A stretch of 64,000 nt of DNA, from positions 25,843-89,842 of the IMG/VR virus record IMGVR_UViG_3300043570_000998; one strand, given 5' to 3'. This DNA comes from a virus. The notes under the pieces are model-generated. The model ran no database searches and had not been told where the DNA came from. It worked only from the letters and a program-made list of their open reading frames with translations. Each line of letters starts with the position of its first letter. Positions within the stretch are counted from its first letter, which is position 1. The translations under genes and the position numbers were made by a program. This document shows, piece by piece, positions 15,668 to 55,514 of the stretch.

Positions 15668-16318
15668 ATGAGTGCAATTAAGGGATTAAAAAATCTAAAC
15701 GCCCTACTCGAAAAACCAAAGTTCGAAGGAACAAAAGTTCGTTGGCTTAAGCTTGCTGACGGACAGTCTGCTGCGATTCGTTTCGTAGAAGAACTAGATG
15801 CAGATTCACCCTACTACGATGAAAGTCGTGGAGAGGCTTGTGTATTTGCAGAGCACACCAACCCAAAGGACTACAAGCGTAAAGCTGCTTGTACAGTGGA
15901 TTCGGAAGGTCGCTGCTACGGCTGTGAAATGGCTCGTAAGGAGCCTAAGTCTGGCTGGAGAGCACGTAACCGCTTCTATTGCAACGTCCTCGTTGAAGAC
16001 GGTCTTGAAGACCCTTACGTGGCTGTATGGTCACAGGGTATTTCAAAGCAGTCTGCTGTACCCACATTGATGGAGTACTTTGACGACACCAAGGGTATTT
16101 CAAATGTTGTTTGGAAGATCAAGCGTAACGGTCAGGGAACTGAAACAAGTTACACACTTCTTCCAAAGGGACCTGACACAGAGCCTTTTGACTGGTCAAC
16201 ACACGAGTTCCACAACTTGGAAAACGTTCTTCGTGAGATTCCTTACGCTGAACAGGAAGCATTCTACTTCGGTTTTGATGCTCCATCAATTACCTCAGCA
16301 ACTAATACTGACTGGTAA
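15668..16318 (+). CDS. Single-stranded DNA-binding protein (T4 gp32-like)
   Basis: His/Cys Zn ligands, KIKRNGQGTETSY motif, position between primase and polymerase. Confidence 0.75.
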   Translation: MSAIKGLKNLNALLEKPKFEGTKVRWLKLADGQSAAIRFVEELDADSPYYDESRGEACVFAEHTNPKDYKRKAACTVDSEGRCYGCEMARKEPKSGWRARNRFYCNVLVEDGLEDPYVAVWSQGISKQSAVPTLMEYFDDTKGISNVVWKIKRNGQGTETSYTLLPKGPDTEPFDWSTHEFHNLENVLREIPYAEQEAFYFGFDAPSITSATNTDW

Positions 16319-16323
16319 TATCC

Positions 16324-16352
16324 ATAGTGCTGGGCATCACTATAATCTGCCC
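16324..16352 (+). ncRNA. H-type pseudoknot motif, copy A
   Basis: ATAGTG-CT-GGGCA-T-CACTAT-AATC-TGCCC; same architecture as four minus-strand copies. Confidence 0.65.
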
Positions 16353-16385: not shown

Positions 16386-19300
16386 ATGAGTTACGCTGGG
16401 CTACACGTTCATACACACTATAGTCTCTTTGACGGAATAGCTACCCCACAGGAATATGTGGATCGTGCGGTAGAGCTGGGTATGCCAGCAATTGCAATCA
16501 CAGATCACGGAAGTCTCTCAGGACACCGTGAGTTATATCGCTCTGCTAAAGAAGCTGGCATCAAGCCAATTCTTGGCATTGAGGGGTACATCACTAAAGA
16601 TCGCCTAGACCACACAGATAAAAAATATAAGCACGACCCCCTAGATCTTAACTATAATCACCTTATTATTCTTGCAAAGAACACTATAGGTCTAGAGAAC
16701 TTAAATAAGCTTAATGAGCTTGCTTGGACAGAAGGATTCTACAAGAAGCCTCGTATTGATTGGAAGATTCTTGAACAATACAAAGAGGGGCTTGTTATTA
16801 CTTCTGGCTGTTTGTCTGGGGTATTGGCTAAGGCAATCGAATCAGACAACCTAGCCTATGCCAAGGAACACATCAAGTGGTGTAAGGATACTTTTGGTGA
16901 CGACTACTACATTGAGGTAATGCCTCACAATCCTGCAGAAGTAAACAAGATGTTGCTTGAGCTTGCAGACGAGTTTGGTATTACACCTGTTGTTACACCT
17001 GACTGCCACCACTCCGATAAGAGCCAGAAAGAAATCCAGGAACTTAAACTAATCCTTAACTCATACTCAAATAAAACTGTTGGAGATGCAACATATAACG
17101 GTACAAAGAAGTATGATAACCTTATGGACAAGCTAGACTACCTCTACGGGGCTGACCGCCAGATGTCATTTAACAAGTTTGACATTCACCTTTTGTCAGA
17201 TGAAGAGATGCACAATGCAATGAAGGCTCAGGGTATTGACCGTGAGGATATGTACGAAGCAACTCTTGAGATCGTAAACAAGATTGAGGATTATGATATC
17301 CAGGACTACCGTGACTTGCTTCCTGTGCAGTACCAGGACCCTGACGGAGAGCTCCTCAGCCTCGCTCTAGAGGGCTTAAAGGCTAAGGGACTAGACCAGA
17401 ACCAGGAATATATTGACCGCCTTAACGAAGAGCTGATGATTATCAAGGATAAGAACTTTGGTCCATACTTTTTAGTTGTACGGTCTATGATTTCTTGGGC
17501 AAAGAAGGAAGGCATTATGGTTGGACCAGGACGTGGTTCATCTGCTGGTTCGCTTTTGTGCTATTCACTTGGCATCACTGACATTGATCCTATCATACAC
17601 GGCTTGCTATTCTTCCGATTTATTAATCCAGAACGTAATGACTTCCCAGATATTGATACAGATATCCAAGATACACGCCGTGAAGAAGTTAAAGATTACT
17701 TGGTTCGTCAGTATCGTCACGTTGCTTCTATTGCTACGTTCTTGCAGTTCAAAGATAAGGGTGTGGTACGAGACATTGCTCGTGTGCTAAACATCCCTCT
17801 TCCTGACGTTAATAAGGTTATGAAGCTTGTAGATACTTGGGAAGACTACTGCTCTTCATCATCTACAGCAGAGTTCCGTGAGAAGTATCCAGAGATTGAA
17901 TTATATGGAGAGCAACTGCGTGGTCGTATCCGTGGTACTGGCATCCACGCTGCAGGTGTTGTTACATCCAAAGAGCCTATCTTTAAGTTTGCTCCAATGG
18001 AAACTCGCACAGCACCAGGAACTAAAGAGCGTATCCCTGTTGTTGCAGTAGATATGACAGAGGCAGAGCGTATCGGTCTTATTAAGATTGATGCCCTTGG
18101 TCTAAAAACTCTTTCTGTTCTACAAGACACACTTGCAATTATTAAAGACCGTAGTGGCAAAGACATTGATCTTCTAAAGATTGATATGGATGATAAGAAT
18201 GTTTACGATATGCTTTCTAACGGATTTACTAAAGGTGTCTTTCAGTGTGAAGCAACACCATACACTAATCTACTTGTAAAAATGGGTGTAAAGAACTTTG
18301 CAGAACTTGCTGCTTCTAATGCTCTAGTCCGTCCAGGTGCAATGAATACAATTGGTAAAGATTACATTGCTCGTAAACACGGCAAGCAAAAGATTACCTA
18401 TCTTCACAGTGTTATGAAAGAGTTTACAGACGAGACCTATGGATGTGTTCTATATCAAGAACAGGTTATGATTGCTTGTACAAATCTTGGCGGTATGACA
18501 ATGGCAGAGGCTGATAAAGTTCGTAAGATTATTGGTAAAAAGAAAGATGCTCGTGAGTTTGACGTGTATAAAGATCAGTTTGTAAGAGGAGCTTCTCGAT
18601 ATGTAACTACCTTCCAAGCAGAAGAACTTTGGCACGACTTTGAGGCTCACGCAGGTTACTCTTTTAATAAGTCACACGCCGTAGCATACTCAACACTTTC
18701 TTACTGGACCGCTTGGTTAAAGTATCACTACCCAATTGAGTTTATGTTTGCACTTCTCAAGAACGAAAAAGACAAGGATGCTCGCACAGAGTACCTTATC
18801 GAAGCAAAGCGTATGGGTATCCCAATTAAGTTGCCACACGTTAATGATTCAGATGCTGACTTCAAGATTGAGGGCAAGGGTATTCGGTTTGGTCTTAGTG
18901 GTATCAAGTTCATTAGTGATAACATTGCAGAAAAGTATATCGCTGCTCGCCCCTTTAACTCTTACAAAGAACTAGAAGAGTTCTCGTTTGGCAAGGGTAA
19001 CGGAGTCAACTCTCGTGCATTGTCAGCACTAAGACTAATTGGTGCTGCTACATTCCCTGACCAGCCTCGTAATGATGAAGAGATTCGTGAGAACCTGTAC
19101 GAGTACTTAAACCTACCAGAGTTCAACACATCAATTCCACAGCACTATCACGCATTTATTAATGACGTTGAGGAGTATGAGGAAAAGGGAGCTTTTGTTA
19201 TTATGGGTATTGTCAAGGGTATCAAACGAGGCAAAGGCTGGTCACGAGTAGAGGTACTAGATAAGACAGGGGCTATCGGTATCTTTGACGAAGAACAGTC

Positions 19301-19664
19301 TAAGGTTGAGGCAGGACGTACATACCTTATTCTTGCAAGTGACAATCGTATTGTTACAGCAATCCCTGCGGATGAAATTAAGGGTAATGATTCAGGTCTT
19401 GTAAAGATTCTTAACTACCGTATGCTACCCTATACAGACGACCAATTAATGGTTGTGTCATTCAGACCACGTATCACTAAGGCTGGTAAAAAGATGGCAT
19501 CAATGGTGGTGGCAGACTCTTCACGAGAACTGCACTCAATCACAATCTTTCCAACTTCATTTCCTAAAGCATATATGAAGATCAAGGAAGGCAATGTATA
19601 TAAATTCTCTTTGGGTAAGACCAAAGATGGAACAACAATTATGGAGGATGTATTCGATGTTTGA
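16386..19664 (+). CDS. dnaE: DNA polymerase III alpha subunit
   Basis: PHP HVHTHYSL, TDHG, GRGSSAGS, PDIDTD, FNKSH. Confidence 0.96.
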   Translation: MSYAGLHVHTHYSLFDGIATPQEYVDRAVELGMPAIAITDHGSLSGHRELYRSAKEAGIKPILGIEGYITKDRLDHTDKKYKHDPLDLNYNHLIILAKNTIGLENLNKLNELAWTEGFYKKPRIDWKILEQYKEGLVITSGCLSGVLAKAIESDNLAYAKEHIKWCKDTFGDDYYIEVMPHNPAEVNKMLLELADEFGITPVVTPDCHHSDKSQKEIQELKLILNSYSNKTVGDATYNGTKKYDNLMDKLDYLYGADRQMSFNKFDIHLLSDEEMHNAMKAQGIDREDMYEATLEIVNKIEDYDIQDYRDLLPVQYQDPDGELLSLALEGLKAKGLDQNQEYIDRLNEELMIIKDKNFGPYFLVVRSMISWAKKEGIMVGPGRGSSAGSLLCYSLGITDIDPIIHGLLFFRFINPERNDFPDIDTDIQDTRREEVKDYLVRQYRHVASIATFLQFKDKGVVRDIARVLNIPLPDVNKVMKLVDTWEDYCSSSSTAEFREKYPEIELYGEQLRGRIRGTGIHAAGVVTSKEPIFKFAPMETRTAPGTKERIPVVAVDMTEAERIGLIKIDALGLKTLSVLQDTLAIIKDRSGKDIDLLKIDMDDKNVYDMLSNGFTKGVFQCEATPYTNLLVKMGVKNFAELAASNALVRPGAMNTIGKDYIARKHGKQKITYLHSVMKEFTDETYGCVLYQEQVMIACTNLGGMTMAEADKVRKIIGKKKDAREFDVYKDQFVRGASRYVTTFQAEELWHDFEAHAGYSFNKSHAVAYSTLSYWTAWLKYHYPIEFMFALLKNEKDKDARTEYLIEAKRMGIPIKLPHVNDSDADFKIEGKGIRFGLSGIKFISDNIAEKYIAARPFNSYKELEEFSFGKGNGVNSRALSALRLIGAATFPDQPRNDEEIRENLYEYLNLPEFNTSIPQHYHAFINDVEEYEEKGAFVIMGIVKGIKRGKGWSRVEVLDKTGAIGIFDEEQSKVEAGRTYLILASDNRIVTAIPADEIKGNDSGLVKILNYRMLPYTDDQLMVVSFRPRITKAGKKMASMVVADSSRELHSITIFPTSFPKAYMKIKEGNVYKFSLGKTKDGTTIMEDVFDV

Positions 19665-52823: not shown

Positions 52824-53004
52824 TTCATACCTTTCATTAGGGGATACTTCTATTATACTGCGTACCACCGACATAAAACAAGAGGAATTCGGGTGATTTT
52901 TTTAGAGGTTCGTAATTGATTTTTAATGATTAACTATCTATGTTTAGAAATTTTGGGGCGCAGCTCCTGTGGATAACTTATCCCCAATCGATCCCCCTAG
53001 GGGG

Positions 53005-53031
53005 AGGCAGTTTAGACTGTTGCCTAGCAGT
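53005..53031 (-). ncRNA. H-type pseudoknot motif, copy B
   Basis: ACTG-CT-AGGCA-A-CAGT-CTAAAC-TGCCT. Confidence 0.65.
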
Positions 53032-53037
53032 TAGGGA

Positions 53038-54060
53038 TTAGACTCCCAGCATTACGGAAGCAACGACACGAGCAAGACGGTTCTTCTCTGCCGTGATAGC
53101 AGGGTCAAAACCACTAGCACCAGCCAAGATGTTTTCGGTGTTACCACCACGAGCAGTCCTGTGCCAATCAAGGCGTTCGGTGAGAGCGTTGAGAGTACCC
53201 CACGCCGTTCCTGTAATCGTGTTGTTGAAGTCACCAACATAAATGTCGTTGATGAGGTCAATCTTGTTCTCGTGCTTTTTGAACGAACCCTTGCTATCCT
53301 TTTCAGGAGCAGGGTAAGCGAGAGCAACAATCTGGTCAAACTCTGCCTTTGTGACTTCGGTTTCAATCATAGCGTTAGCCATAATGGAAAACTCGTCAAG
53401 GTAAGTCTGTGCCAAGCCCAATGCTTCACGAGCAACTTGAACCTTACCGTCAGCAGTCTGCGTGTGACGGATTTTGAACGACTGCTTGACATTACGCCAC
53501 TTGCCAACTCCGCCACCAAGAGCAAGGTTGAGAGTGTTAGCACACACAACACGAACAGGCGTGATACTTGCCATAATGGAGATAGAGCCGTCGTGACTTG
53601 TGTTGATGAGTAGGTAGTTGTCAATCTTGTCAGCACGACCATTAGGGTCAAGCGTGATTGAATTGTCAAGAGCAAGCGAGCCAAAGACTACACGACCACC
53701 CTTGATTGAACCAGCGGTTTCCCAACGACCACCACCGTCAAGCAGGTTGTCACCAAAAGTGAACAAGTCCTCGTTTTGGAGAGTGTGGTATCGTTCTCCA
53801 ACTACGCCAAGCACATCATTCTGTGTCTTGTCAAATGGGTTAGTACGGCAGACAAAGTAGTTTGTCTTGTCCGATACATATCCCTCTGGAAATGACAGTT
53901 CTTCCAAACGGACATTCCAATTATCAAGGTGAGCGAGTTTGAGCATTTCGGAAGTCTTTACTTCCTCTTCAAACACAGTACCCAACTTGTGCCAAGCAGG
54001 TTCTCGCAAAGAAGCAAAAGCCACTTCGCCATTAGCACCAATTTCTAAATCGTGAGCCAT
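53038..54060 (-). CDS. DUF932-family (phage/plasmid) protein
   Basis: PAWH.LG, ETAGS..GG, YLL..SHDG, RVVCANTL, GTAWG..NA..E. Confidence 0.85.
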   Translation of the reverse strand: MAHDLEIGANGEVAFASLREPAWHKLGTVFEEEVKTSEMLKLAHLDNWNVRLEELSFPEGYVSDKTNYFVCRTNPFDKTQNDVLGVVGERYHTLQNEDLFTFGDNLLDGGGRWETAGSIKGGRVVFGSLALDNSITLDPNGRADKIDNYLLINTSHDGSISIMASITPVRVVCANTLNLALGGGVGKWRNVKQSFKIRHTQTADGKVQVAREALGLAQTYLDEFSIMANAMIETEVTKAEFDQIVALAYPAPEKDSKGSFKKHENKIDLINDIYVGDFNNTITGTAWGTLNALTERLDWHRTARGGNTENILAGASGFDPAITAEKNRLARVVASVMLGV

Positions 54061-54369
54061 TGTATACCTTTCGTTTTGTTGTTAGTTCTATTATACAGCC
54101 GACCACCGACATATAACTATTTCAGGGAACATTTTGGGAGCTTCGTAACCTAACCGTAATAAGTATGTTCTAACAAATCGGGGGCGCAAATCGATCCCCT
54201 ACCCATACAAAAATCCCCCTGTTTACCAGCAGTCTATCCAGACCACTTCACAGGGGGACTAATGTGTGAAAGTTTATTTTAGTAAAGACCCATCATTTCA
54301 CCGTAGTAACTTCTTTACCTAGACAGTTCCTATATATCAACTGACAACTTCAACCTCTGTTTCAAGGTG

Positions 54370-54441
54370 CGATTTCACAGGGACTCGAACCCTGACTACT
54401 ACTTCGACAGAGTAGCGTGATAACCTTTTCACTATGAAACC
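54370..54441 (-). tRNA. Second, divergent tRNA-Asp(GTC)
   Basis: GGTTTCA/TGAAATC acceptor; CTACT-CT-GTC-GA-AGTAG; CAGGG-TTCGAGT-CCCTG. Confidence 0.8.
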
Positions 54442-54468
54442 TAGTGTATCTCTATGTAGTTTTAGATT

Positions 54469-54496
54469 GGGTAGTTTTATGTGATACCCAGCACAT
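54469..54496 (-). ncRNA. H-type pseudoknot motif, copy C
   Basis: ATGTG-CT-GGGTA-T-CACAT-AAAAC-TACCC. Confidence 0.65.
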
Positions 54497-54501
54497 TCTC
54501 G

Positions 54502-54951
54502 TTAGAGAAGTTCCAGAACCGAATTGTAGGTTGAGGAAGTAACGAACTCTTGCGGAGTAAGACGGAGAAGAGCGAGTGTCTTTTCCAACTCTTGGAGTTT
54601 GCTTGCCGTTCCGCCGTATCCGCTAGGGCTGTTTGGTTCGACAGGTGGCTTTCCCAAGTCAAACTGCTCAATGAGGTTAGCCCCAACTGTCAGGTCTAGA
54701 TTACCGTTGTATCCACGATTTGAGATACGAATGGTGTCTACCCACTCACCCTCAAAGATTTCCTGCCCACCAACAGTAATAATGTTGGCAACCATTTCAG
54801 CAATACGCTTGGTGTAAGCCTTGCGTTCGTACTTGTATTCCTCAACCTTTGTGGGGTATTCAGCGATTTCAGTTTTCAGTTGTGCTACCTTGTCCTCAAC
54901 CATTGTGAGAACACTTGCGGTAGGGATTTTTACAGAGATACTGCGAGCCAT
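54502..54951 (-). CDS. Hypothetical protein
   Basis: RBS GAAAGGA after cassette promoter. Confidence 0.65.
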   Translation of the reverse strand: MARSISVKIPTASVLTMVEDKVAQLKTEIAEYPTKVEEYKYERKAYTKRIAEMVANIITVGGQEIFEGEWVDTIRISNRGYNGNLDLTVGANLIEQFDLGKPPVEPNSPSGYGGTASKLQELEKTLALLRLTPQEFVTSSTYNSVLELL

Positions 54952-55024
54952 TTGTTTAGTCCTTTCTATTGGCTGTATTACTATTATACTGTGGGGGTAT
55001 GACATATAACTATTGAGTTAGAGT

Positions 55025-55051
55025 GGGTAGTTTAGTCTGATACCCAGCAGA
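55025..55051 (-). ncRNA. H-type pseudoknot motif, copy D
   Basis: TCTG-CT-GGGTA-T-CAGA-CTAAAC-TACCC. Confidence 0.65.
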
Positions 55052-55056
55052 TACGA

Positions 55057-55209
55057 TTACTTGGAAGTAACCGTAGTCCAACGAGGCTGTCCAGCAACAT
55101 CAAGACGGACACGGAATGAACCGTTTGCGTTCTTGACAATCTCCTGAACCGTTCCCGAAACACCAGACTTCTGCGTGGTGAGGGTCGAACCGATTTCGAT
55201 TTCCGACAT
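55057..55209 (-). CDS. Small SH3-like protein
   Basis: 50 aa; two tandem upstream promoters (TTGACA-N17-TATAAT 55293-55265 and cassette promoter 55383-55362). Confidence 0.6.
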   Translation of the reverse strand: MSEIEIGSTLTTQKSGVSGTVQEIVKNANGSFRVRLDVAGQPRWTTVTSK

Positions 55210-55483
55210 ATTATTACCTTGCTTCCTTGTAGTGAGCCAACTTGTTGTTTGCTTCGTTATTACCATTATACAGGCTGGGAAAGAGTTTGTCAAGCCTTTT
55301 CTCAAAGTTTTTTATTTATTTTGTGGGGACTTCCGACTTCGTTTCCCTTGCCTGTAATACAAGTATACCAACGACCACCGACATATAACTAATCGAATCT
55401 GGAGATTTTTGTAACAGTTCGTAACTTGTTTGTCATAACAAAGGGGTGCGCAGGTCCACCGATCTTGGCAGGGTACTAAGAAA

Positions 55484-55514
55484 GGACAGTTTATAAAGGT
55501 CATATCCAGGACCT
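55484..55514 (-). ncRNA. H-type pseudoknot motif, copy E
   Basis: AGGTC-CT-GGATA-T-GACCT-TTATAAAC-TGTCC. Confidence 0.6.

Follow-up and report, generated by a model that had tools for sequence, protein, structure and literature searches.

A compact RNA pseudoknot repeated behind phage genes: a widespread, uncatalogued motif of uncultured lake phages with a possible role at RNA ends

What might an RNA fold of 27 to 31 bases do that a phage carries in several copies, most of them a few letters behind a stop codon? The question arises from a stretch of viral DNA of 64,000 nucleotides (nt), called the window below, which corresponds to bases 25843-89842 of the 89,842-base IMG/VR record IMGVR_UViG_3300043570_000998 and has a G+C content of 40%. 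A preliminary description, made from the letters of the window, had reported five copies of a compact H-type RNA pseudoknot, and all five were present, four on the minus strand and one on the plus strand. Comparison with related phage DNA indicates that the motif is real, that it folds as RNA of the sense strand and that it is essentially a phage motif; we regard it as a widespread, uncatalogued RNA pseudoknot of uncultured lake phages. As to its function, the reading that we prefer, with a probability of about 40%, is a cis-acting RNA-end or boundary element at which exonucleases would stall.

The window copies fit the scheme S1-CU-GRGYA-W-S1'-..AA(A/U)C-S2', in which S1 and S2 are the 5' strands of two stems, S1' and S2' are their partners, and the linkers are termed L1 (CU), L2 (W) and L3 (between S1' and S2'). 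Copy 1 (53005-53031, minus strand), with the sequence ACUG-CU-AGGCA-A-CAGU-CUAAAC-UGCCU, starts 6 nt past the TAA of a DUF932 gene and scored 34.6 bits with the covariance model described below. Copy 2 (54469-54496, minus; AUGUG-CU-GGGUA-U-CACAU-AAAAC-UACCC; 35.7 bits) is located 5 nt past the TAA of a gene for 149 amino acids (aa) and 27 nt 5' of a tRNA-Asp gene. Copy 3 (55025-55051, minus; UCUG-CU-GGGUA-U-CAGA-CUAAAC-UACCC; 36.2 bits) follows the TAA of a 50-aa gene at 5 nt and precedes a promoter-like TATATGTC..TATAAT. The divergent copy 4 (55484-55514, minus; AGGUC-CU-GGAUA-U-GACCU-UUAUAAAC-UGUCC; 7.7 bits) lies 48 nt past the TAG of a 134-aa open reading frame (ORF). On the plus strand, copy 5 (16324-16352; AUAGUG-CU-GGGCA-U-CACUAU-AAUC-UGCCC; 30.1 bits) begins 5 nt past the TAA of an SSB homologue and ends 33 nt 5' of the dnaE start. 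The pairings listed in the preliminary description were correct throughout, GGAUA/UGUCC containing one U-G pair, and the linkers were fixed as it had stated: CU, then U or A, then a segment ending in AAAC, or in AAUC in the plus-strand copy. It was also right that none of the window copies has a U tract; the nearest approach is UUUCUU after position 55484, behind copy 4.

The fold together with its conserved letters was found at five sites in the window, whereas each of 100 shuffles that preserve dinucleotides had none. With CU and W as the only anchors, the bare fold occurred 14 times compared with 6.9 ± 1.9 times in shuffled sequence (maximum, 11), and the nine other fold-only matches are therefore regarded as background. 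A looser scanner applied to the whole 89,842-base genome returned the same five copies plus two fold-only matches inside ORFs, which were taken as chance.

For comparative analysis, 56 related IMG/VR loci were gathered with the DUF932 protein, and 30 copies served to build a covariance model that had S1 as its sole structure. Matches were taken at E ≤ 0.1. The window and the 56 related loci yielded 186 matches, every one of them on the sense strand; the 182 that fell within the related loci were all on the DUF932 strand, upstream of or just behind that gene. Four of the window copies scored 30 to 36 bits, and the next-best site reached 12.4 bits. Copy 4 (55484-55513 in the model) obtained only 7.7 bits, with E = 3; it was accepted because its orthologues in L002 and L004-L006 of the related loci carry compensatory changes (GAGGAC..GUCCUU, GGACA/UGUCC). 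In the covariation alignment, which consisted of 74 distinct rows and 666 pair cells, 97.7% of these cells were paired, compared with 73.0 ± 1.2% in shuffles (none of 500 reached the observed value) and 28 to 45% with slid partners. Each pair of S1 was altered on both sides in 22 to 43 of the 74 rows. S2 covaried as well, even though the model had treated it as plain sequence: 99.2% of its cells were paired, and changes on both sides were seen at three pairs. The pair 8-49 was AU in 49 rows, GC in 25 and never unpaired; another was GC in 62 rows, AU in 8 and GU in 4; the third was CG in 41, UG in 28 and UA in 5. Covariation in homologues, looked for with this model in the related loci, was thus found for S1 and S2 alike, and the proposed compact H-type pseudoknot with covarying stems is backed by relatives in both.

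Because the alignment had been fitted to S1, an S1-blind test was also made, using a pattern that fixes only L1, S2, the end of L3 and S2'. This pattern matched more than 120 IMG/VR stretches at the least. Among the 73 distinct matches listed, 52 had at least four contiguous S1 pairs in the expected register, and 11 more had a 6-pair S1 with a 3-nt L2; in wrong registers, almost none paired. The U-G pairs (28 of 74 rows at one S2 position) and the exclusive occurrence on the sense strand argue that the knot acts as RNA of that strand. A broader scanner detected 358 instances in 1.68 Mb of fetched phage DNA versus 1 in shuffled DNA. They represent 309 distinct contexts, to which the counts below refer. 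We consider the compact H-type pseudoknot with covarying stems and fixed linkers to be well supported by these comparisons.

A similar, slightly tighter pattern run against 596 Gb of prokaryote genomes returned only 90 stretches. Among the 80 listed, 65 had three S1 pairs or fewer, which is the chance level, and the 15 with an S1 were mostly contigs of metagenome-assembled genomes. The motif, frequent in viral contigs and near chance level in prokaryote genomes, therefore appears to be essentially a phage motif. The statement that it belongs to no named family was upheld for Rfam 15: only a tRNA exceeded the gathering score in the window, pieces of 2751, 611 and 91 bases gave nothing but chance-level small nucleolar RNA and small RNA rows at E up to 10, and the knots in five related loci had no match, with preQ1-I and other small knot riboswitches included in the search. 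Literature searches yielded no description of the motif. The supplementary tables of PMC10690425 give 10,006 candidate RNAs from IMG/VR and RNA-virus datasets, and this list may contain the knot unnamed.

The relatives define the anatomy of the knot more closely. S1, of 4 to 6 pairs in the window and up to 7 elsewhere, can have any sequence; its loop-closing pair is C-G in 271 of the 309 contexts and G-C in 36, the latter including four of the five window copies. L1 is CU. S2 has five pairs, formed by GAGCA, GAGUA, GGGUA, GGGCA, AAGCA, AGGCA or GGACA with UGCYC or UACCC, and in 279 contexts a single nucleotide makes up L2. In one relative (L040:2267-2308, plus strand) a 16-nt insert replaces the single junction nucleotide, and both stems are retained. 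L3 measures 3 to 12 nt, most often 6, and ends in a nearly invariant AAAC. The letter after AAAC is U in 71 of the 74 alignment rows, followed by A in window copies 2 and 3 and by G in most rows. The invariant letters, that is, CU, S2 positions 3 and 5 and AAAC, surround the junction of the two helices, where base triples form in known compact knots, and L3 would be placed to lie in the minor groove of S1. Past the knot, base +1 is A in 65% and base +2 is C in 52% of the contexts and never G. The first 8 nt on this 3' side are strongly G-poor (G, 0 to 11%) and likely unstructured. Possibly the U of L1 pairs with the A after the knot to form a sixth S2 pair; the motif may reach past S2', or a single-stranded tail may be required. 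A tRNA-like 3' end was dropped as a candidate, since ACCA follows the knot in only 17 contexts.

In the window, the four minus-strand copies share one 2.5-kb block of short genes. It begins with the 134-aa ORF and copy 4, and continues with a promoter-like region, the 50-aa gene (55057-55209, minus) and copy 3. A promoter-like motif, the 149-aa gene (54502-54951, minus), copy 2, the tRNA-Asp gene (anticodon GTC; 54369-54441, minus) and an ordinary hairpin and T-run terminator come next, and a promoter-like motif, the DUF932 gene (53038-54060, minus), copy 1 and a small C/G hairpin complete the order. The terminator, at 54200-54260 on the minus strand, consists of CCCCCUG ... CAGGGGG with a long loop, then AUUUUUG; it closes the unit made up of the 149-aa gene, the knot and tRNA-Asp, and one resembling it is present in relative L011. 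Because this separate terminator follows the tRNA, copy 2 is located between message and tRNA and not at the end of the unit. The hairpin abutting copy 1 (52993-53004, minus) pairs a C run with a G run, lacks a U tract and is kept with altered loops in relatives L001-L006 and L053. A TTATCCACA-like box 3' of it (52960-52990, minus) is kept in these relatives as well. The promoter-like motif, TATATGTC followed at 10 to 12 nt by TAnnnT, has eleven copies on the minus strand between 54115 and 61396, one on the 5' side of each short gene cassette. A scan of 48.5 to 62 kb for consensus promoters and terminators performed no better than in shuffles.

Copy 5 is situated between the gene for a 216-aa homologue (15668-16318, plus) of a protein of Streptomyces phage BillNye that bears the annotation SSB (36% identity, E 7e-27) and the gene for a DnaE-type DNA polymerase (16386-19664, plus), a position that is kept in relatives L057 and L058. 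All five copies are on the sense strand of their genes. The 50-aa gene represents a small conserved family (48 to 56 aa, 10 invariant residues) that is repeatedly encoded just 5' of a knot, often in other phages; it had no relative in Pfam, PHROG or PDB, and the Atlas gave unnamed clusters with sub-threshold SH3-like leads only. Near-identical DNA is contained in lake-water metagenome runs. The DnaE and DUF932 genes have their nearest counterparts among Stanwilliamsviridae phages of Streptomyces, with a protein identity of about 55% or a resemblance over short DNA stretches only; at the DNA level, the region matched six Streptomyces phage records, and these only in short parts of the DUF932 gene. 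Among 50,697 phage records, neither the 149-aa nor the 50-aa protein had a match. When the covariance model was applied to phage Coruscant around DUF932 and to phage BillNye around dnaE, it detected no knot.

Placement across the 309 contexts is informative with regard to function. An ORF ends within 60 nt 5' of the knot in 252 contexts, the other 57 being without one. The spacing between stop and knot ranges from 0 to 58 nt, with a peak at 5 to 6 nt (60 contexts), lesser peaks at 9 and 17 nt, and only three values below 3 nt. The 5- to 6-nt spacing given in the preliminary description, which holds for four window copies (6, 5, 5 and 5 nt, with 48 nt in the fifth), is therefore the commonest value and not a rule. 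On the 3' side, a tRNA begins 4 to 11 nt past the knot in 27 contexts. All 35 tRNAs with a knot within 30 nt 5' are the first of their cluster, a share that is inflated because loci were selected for having knots. By crude regular expressions, a site resembling a ribosome-binding site (RBS) is present within 60 nt in about 80 contexts and a -10-like hexamer in about 100, and an immediate T run follows in 37. Knots located 8 to 10 nt 5' of an RBS form a further class. Behind DUF932, 43 of the 56 relatives carry a knot, behind which comes either a C/G hairpin or a promoter box, or else a T run or a tRNA (16 loci), and at least 6 of the 13 knot-less relatives, read by eye, carry a GC hairpin and T run instead. 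Genes found recurrently ahead of knots encode the 50-aa, 140- to 149-aa and 138- to 143-aa families, Hsp20-like proteins, DUF932, the SSB homologue and C termini resembling ribonucleotide reductase. At L064:2641-2774 (plus strand) and 19 further distinct loci, TATAAT stands directly after the stop of a gene for an Hsp20-like or small membrane protein; next come hairpins, about 85 nt in all and with some covariation, then a knot with a 6-pair S1 and a 3-nt L2 and, 11 nt on, a -10 box. These elements had no Rfam match, and the unit looks like a separately promoted small RNA or a long leader, capped by the knot.

It is this placement that favors a role at RNA ends or boundaries, and that part of the range of functions offered in the preliminary description is the one we retain; nothing favors antitermination or ligand sensing, which were also on its list, and sequence alone cannot decide among the rest. 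We propose that the knot is a module at the borders of phage RNA units. RNA ends would arise by termination further 3' or by cleavage, as by RNase P where a tRNA stands a few letters past the knot, and exoribonucleases would then stall at the compact fold. The adjoining unit, above all the upstream message, would thus keep a defined, protected end and outlive its neighbors, and the knot may also block 5'-to-3' decay entering the downstream unit. This proposal is consistent with the alternation of knots and ordinary terminators behind DUF932 and with the capping of small promoter-driven RNAs. In addition, AAAC-UAC at the boundary of L3 and S2' in two window copies equals the essential spacer segment A15-C21 of coremin, an RNA of plant and picorna-like viruses that stalls the exonuclease Xrn1 (PMC6546385).

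Several observations weigh against this proposal. CU, G3, A5 and AAAC are strictly conserved, which a protein or ligand partner could explain equally well. A hairpin of the coremin type begins 0 to 3 nt 3' of the knot in 33 of the 309 contexts, compared with 36 and 42 at offsets of +40 and +70 and about 27 in shuffles, and among the five window copies only one has a hairpin directly 3' of it. The nested folding energy of each stem is weak at -3.8 to -5.8 kcal/mol (z, -0.1 to -0.6), as calculated with a program that cannot model knots; these energies being ordinary, the support for the fold is comparative and not thermodynamic. Cellular genomes are nearly devoid of the motif, which would be odd if host nucleases alone act on it. 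Some knots belong to 5' leaders and are separated from the upstream gene by a promoter, so that shielding of an upstream message would be senseless there, and only 4 of about 11 promoter cassettes in the window have a knot. Finally, in small shares of two lake metatranscriptome runs, which gave contigs of relatives and no RNA starts or ends, an 885-base contig (54514-55398) crosses copy 3 and ends 18 nt before copy 2, from which nothing firm follows; the stretches that the contigs leave uncovered are uninformative.

A more specific version of the RNA-end proposal is tentative, and we lean against it: the knot may be a minimal exoribonuclease-resistant RNA (xrRNA) of phages, a coremin-like, triple-stranded fold of 27 nt that would stop PNPase or RNase R on its 3' side and RNase J on its 5' side and that, together with tRNA processing, would set and protect ends without a terminator in the manner of MALAT1 and mascRNA. 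If this were true, one RNA device would be common to eukaryotic RNA viruses and DNA phages. Among the natural protectors of RNA ends known from bacteria and their viruses, a knot acting as nuclease stop or processing mark would be the smallest. It would also represent a phage-specific alternative to terminator hairpins and a 27-base part with which synthetic transcripts could be stabilized or insulated. For a large group of uncultured lake phages, the knot moreover offers a cheap means of marking gene ends and transcript units, as well as a concrete target for structural work.

The conservation around the helical junction could also be explained by an operator, at which a protein of the phage or of its host would bind and control translation or decay of the neighboring genes; the phage candidates include the gp32-like SSB homologue and the recurrent 50-aa protein. 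The invariant letters ring that junction, the motif is phage-specific, the G-poor and likely unstructured 8 nt follow it, some knots stand 8 to 10 nt ahead of an RBS, and copy 5 keeps its place next to the SSB homologue in two relatives; in phage T4, a pseudoknot is bound by gp32, which then extends along an unstructured, A+U-rich tract as far as the RBS (PMC3014915). Copy 5, however, lies behind and not ahead of the SSB gene, many knots are followed by a promoter or tRNA and no RBS, and none of seven tested proteins is encoded near all knots, the commonest being present in 35 of 120 loci. Since, in addition, the 50-aa family is without a recognized fold or family and the base triples of knots of the beet western yellows virus (BWYV) type demand conserved junctions as well, we consider an operator unlikely. 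A terminator or attenuator, in which the knot, alone or with a factor, would stop or pause RNA polymerase at cassette ends, is quite unlikely. The frequent cassette layout of promoter, gene, knot and next promoter would suit it, as would the alternation with ordinary terminators behind DUF932, the small promoter-driven RNAs with no other structure before the next -10 box, and the immediate T run after 37 knots, although several T runs pass directly into a TTGACA box and could be part of the promoter that follows. Yet the tRNAs that start 4 to 11 nt past 27 knots leave no room for a promoter, and dnaE and other genes start 20 to 35 nt past knots with no visible promoter, so that polymerase must read through the knot; these distances and the separate terminator ending the unit of copy 2 speak against a plain terminator. 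Nor do the window copies, which lack a proper U tract, have the GC hairpin and immediate U tract of an intrinsic terminator, and the contig of one relative that spans copy 3 is a further, weak point on this side.

Protection of the downstream unit alone, whether as a shield against 5'-to-3' decay or as a folding insulator, would make the knot a bacterial counterpart of coremin-type xrRNAs directed against RNase J. The segment AAAC-U(A/G)C and a loop with a pyrimidine first and A-(A/U) last recall Xrn1-stalling coremin and its Watson-Crick variant (PMC6546385, PMC10321173), and knots are found directly ahead of tRNAs, RBSs and dnaE. This is decidedly unlikely, however: the downstream hairpin that coremin requires is not enriched, the G-C closing pair of four window copies (36 of 309 contexts) nearly abolished resistance in coremin (PMC6546385), frameshift knots of similar size failed to stall Xrn1 (PMC10321173), and a promoter follows many knots, so most downstream RNA starts past the knot. 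A signal to the ribosome, by which a knot 5 to 6 nt past the stop would cause read-through, frameshifting or a stall at termination, is highly improbable. Its commonest spacing does equal the spacer of frameshift and read-through stimulators, and its architecture is that of luteovirus frameshift knots. Coremin, for its part, promotes -1 frameshifting in a reporter (PMC10321173). Against this, the 135 knots within 12 nt of a stop allow median runs of only 8, 8 and 6 codons to the next stop in the three frames, no slippery heptamer precedes any of the five window copies, the spacing varies from 0 to 58 nt, 57 contexts have no nearby ORF end, and knots also occur in 5' leaders and at ends of small RNAs. 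The short extensions, missing slippery sites and varying spacing argue that the knot is not a recoding signal. Equally little weight is given to a site at the DNA level (a palindromic protein site, a cassette recombination site or a single-stranded DNA fold) or to a small-molecule riboswitch. GRGYA..UGCYC is an inverted repeat and the elements stand at cassette borders, as a DNA site might, and ligand binding is possible for small knots whose third loop is A-rich, as in preQ1-I. S1, however, joins the 5' flank to the interior of the repeat and covaries, which a double-stranded site cannot explain, and the common U-G pairs would be A-C mismatches on the opposite strand; both argue against a site in duplex DNA. 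Every match is, moreover, on the sense strand, no Rfam riboswitch matched, and the many copies lie beside unrelated genes.

Among known systems, coremin (xrRNA-C) and its Watson-Crick variant (xrRNA-WCC) invite the closest comparison. Coremin opens with a hairpin of 3 to 5 pairs whose loop is YGAD. Next comes a conserved spacer of 10 nt, with AAA, CU and A as its essential letters, and immediately 3' of this stands another hairpin (PMC6546385), whose four or more pairs are required for Xrn1 resistance (PMC6546385, PMC10321173). Both coremin and the phage knot begin with a very short hairpin, of 4 to 6 pairs in the phage knot, and carry conserved letters past it, the phage linker being 3 to 12 nt long. 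The coremin letters A15-A17, C18, U19, A20 and C21 read AAACUAC, identical to the L3-S2' segment of copies 2 and 3, most relatives having AAACUGC, and the adenines have been proposed to lie in a minor groove; its loop likewise starts with a pyrimidine and ends in A-(A/U). In xrRNA-WCC, loop and spacer pair in antiparallel fashion to form an H-type knot of three pairs (PMC10321173), and S2 of the phage knot makes such a Watson-Crick pairing with five. The coremin loop, however, has 4 or 6 nt (YGAD or YGNNAD) and 0 to 3 pairs (PMC6546385, PMC10321173), whereas the phage loop, CUGRGYAW, has 8 nt, of which only the first and the last two letters fit the consensus, and its hosts are DNA phages of bacteria, which lack Xrn1. 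In view of the 8-nt loop, the G-C closing pair in four window copies and the second hairpin, which is not enriched, the phage knot is not a member of the coremin group. It may still work like coremin. The class 3 plant xrRNA (PMC11702639), a different and larger fold, and the RNAs of the Minerva preprint, which are other RNAs, were set aside. The likeness to coremin, a motif of RNA viruses of plants and insects, prompts one to ask whether convergence or a shared physical solution lies behind it.

The luteovirus knots of BWYV and potato leafroll virus (PLRV) have a short L1, a junction of about 1 nt and an A-rich last loop, all within fewer than 35 nt. The phage knot, with CU as L1, an L2 of 1 nt and an L3 ending in AAAC, shares this architecture. 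It has neither a slippery heptamer 5 to 8 nt upstream nor a continuing -1 frame, and differs also in its place behind stops, in untranslated RNA, and in its longer S2 of 5 to 6 pairs. The BWYV and PLRV knots have themselves been named coremin look-alikes (PMC10321173).

For the proposed combination of end formation and protection, MALAT1 and MEN-beta offer a parallel: there a triple helix is followed by a tRNA-like RNA that is cut by RNase P, which makes a protected 3' end (PMC13170383, PMC4824109). The order of message, compact triple-stranded cap and tRNA shape would recur in the phages, where 27 of the 309 knots have a real tRNA 4 to 11 nt 3'. The eukaryotic RNA differs in that it is nuclear and, in place of an H-type knot, has an A-rich tail engaged by a U-A-U triple helix (PMC13170383, PMC4824109). 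Most phage knots have no tRNA after them, and cutting and protection are here proposals.

Lastly, the gene 32 operator of phages T4 and T2 resembles the phage knot as a small, coaxially stacked H-type knot of phage mRNA with an unstructured tract after it (PMC3014915), and one copy of the phage knot adjoins an SSB homologue. The T4 knot is a single copy 5' of gene 32 (PMC3014915), whereas the phage knot follows many unrelated genes and, at the SSB homologue, is on the 3' side. Copy 5 stands between the SSB stop and dnaE, not ahead of the RBS of SSB itself. More generally, repetitive extragenic palindromic (REP) elements, intercistronic stem-loops and the RNase III sites of T7, all plain hairpins of 20 to 60 nt, punctuate or stabilize bacterial and phage transcripts. 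Like them, the phage knot is a strand-specific, repeated structure just behind stop codons for which differential stability of cistrons can be proposed; what sets it apart is that this structure is a pseudoknot of 27 nt with fixed loop letters, found almost only in phages.

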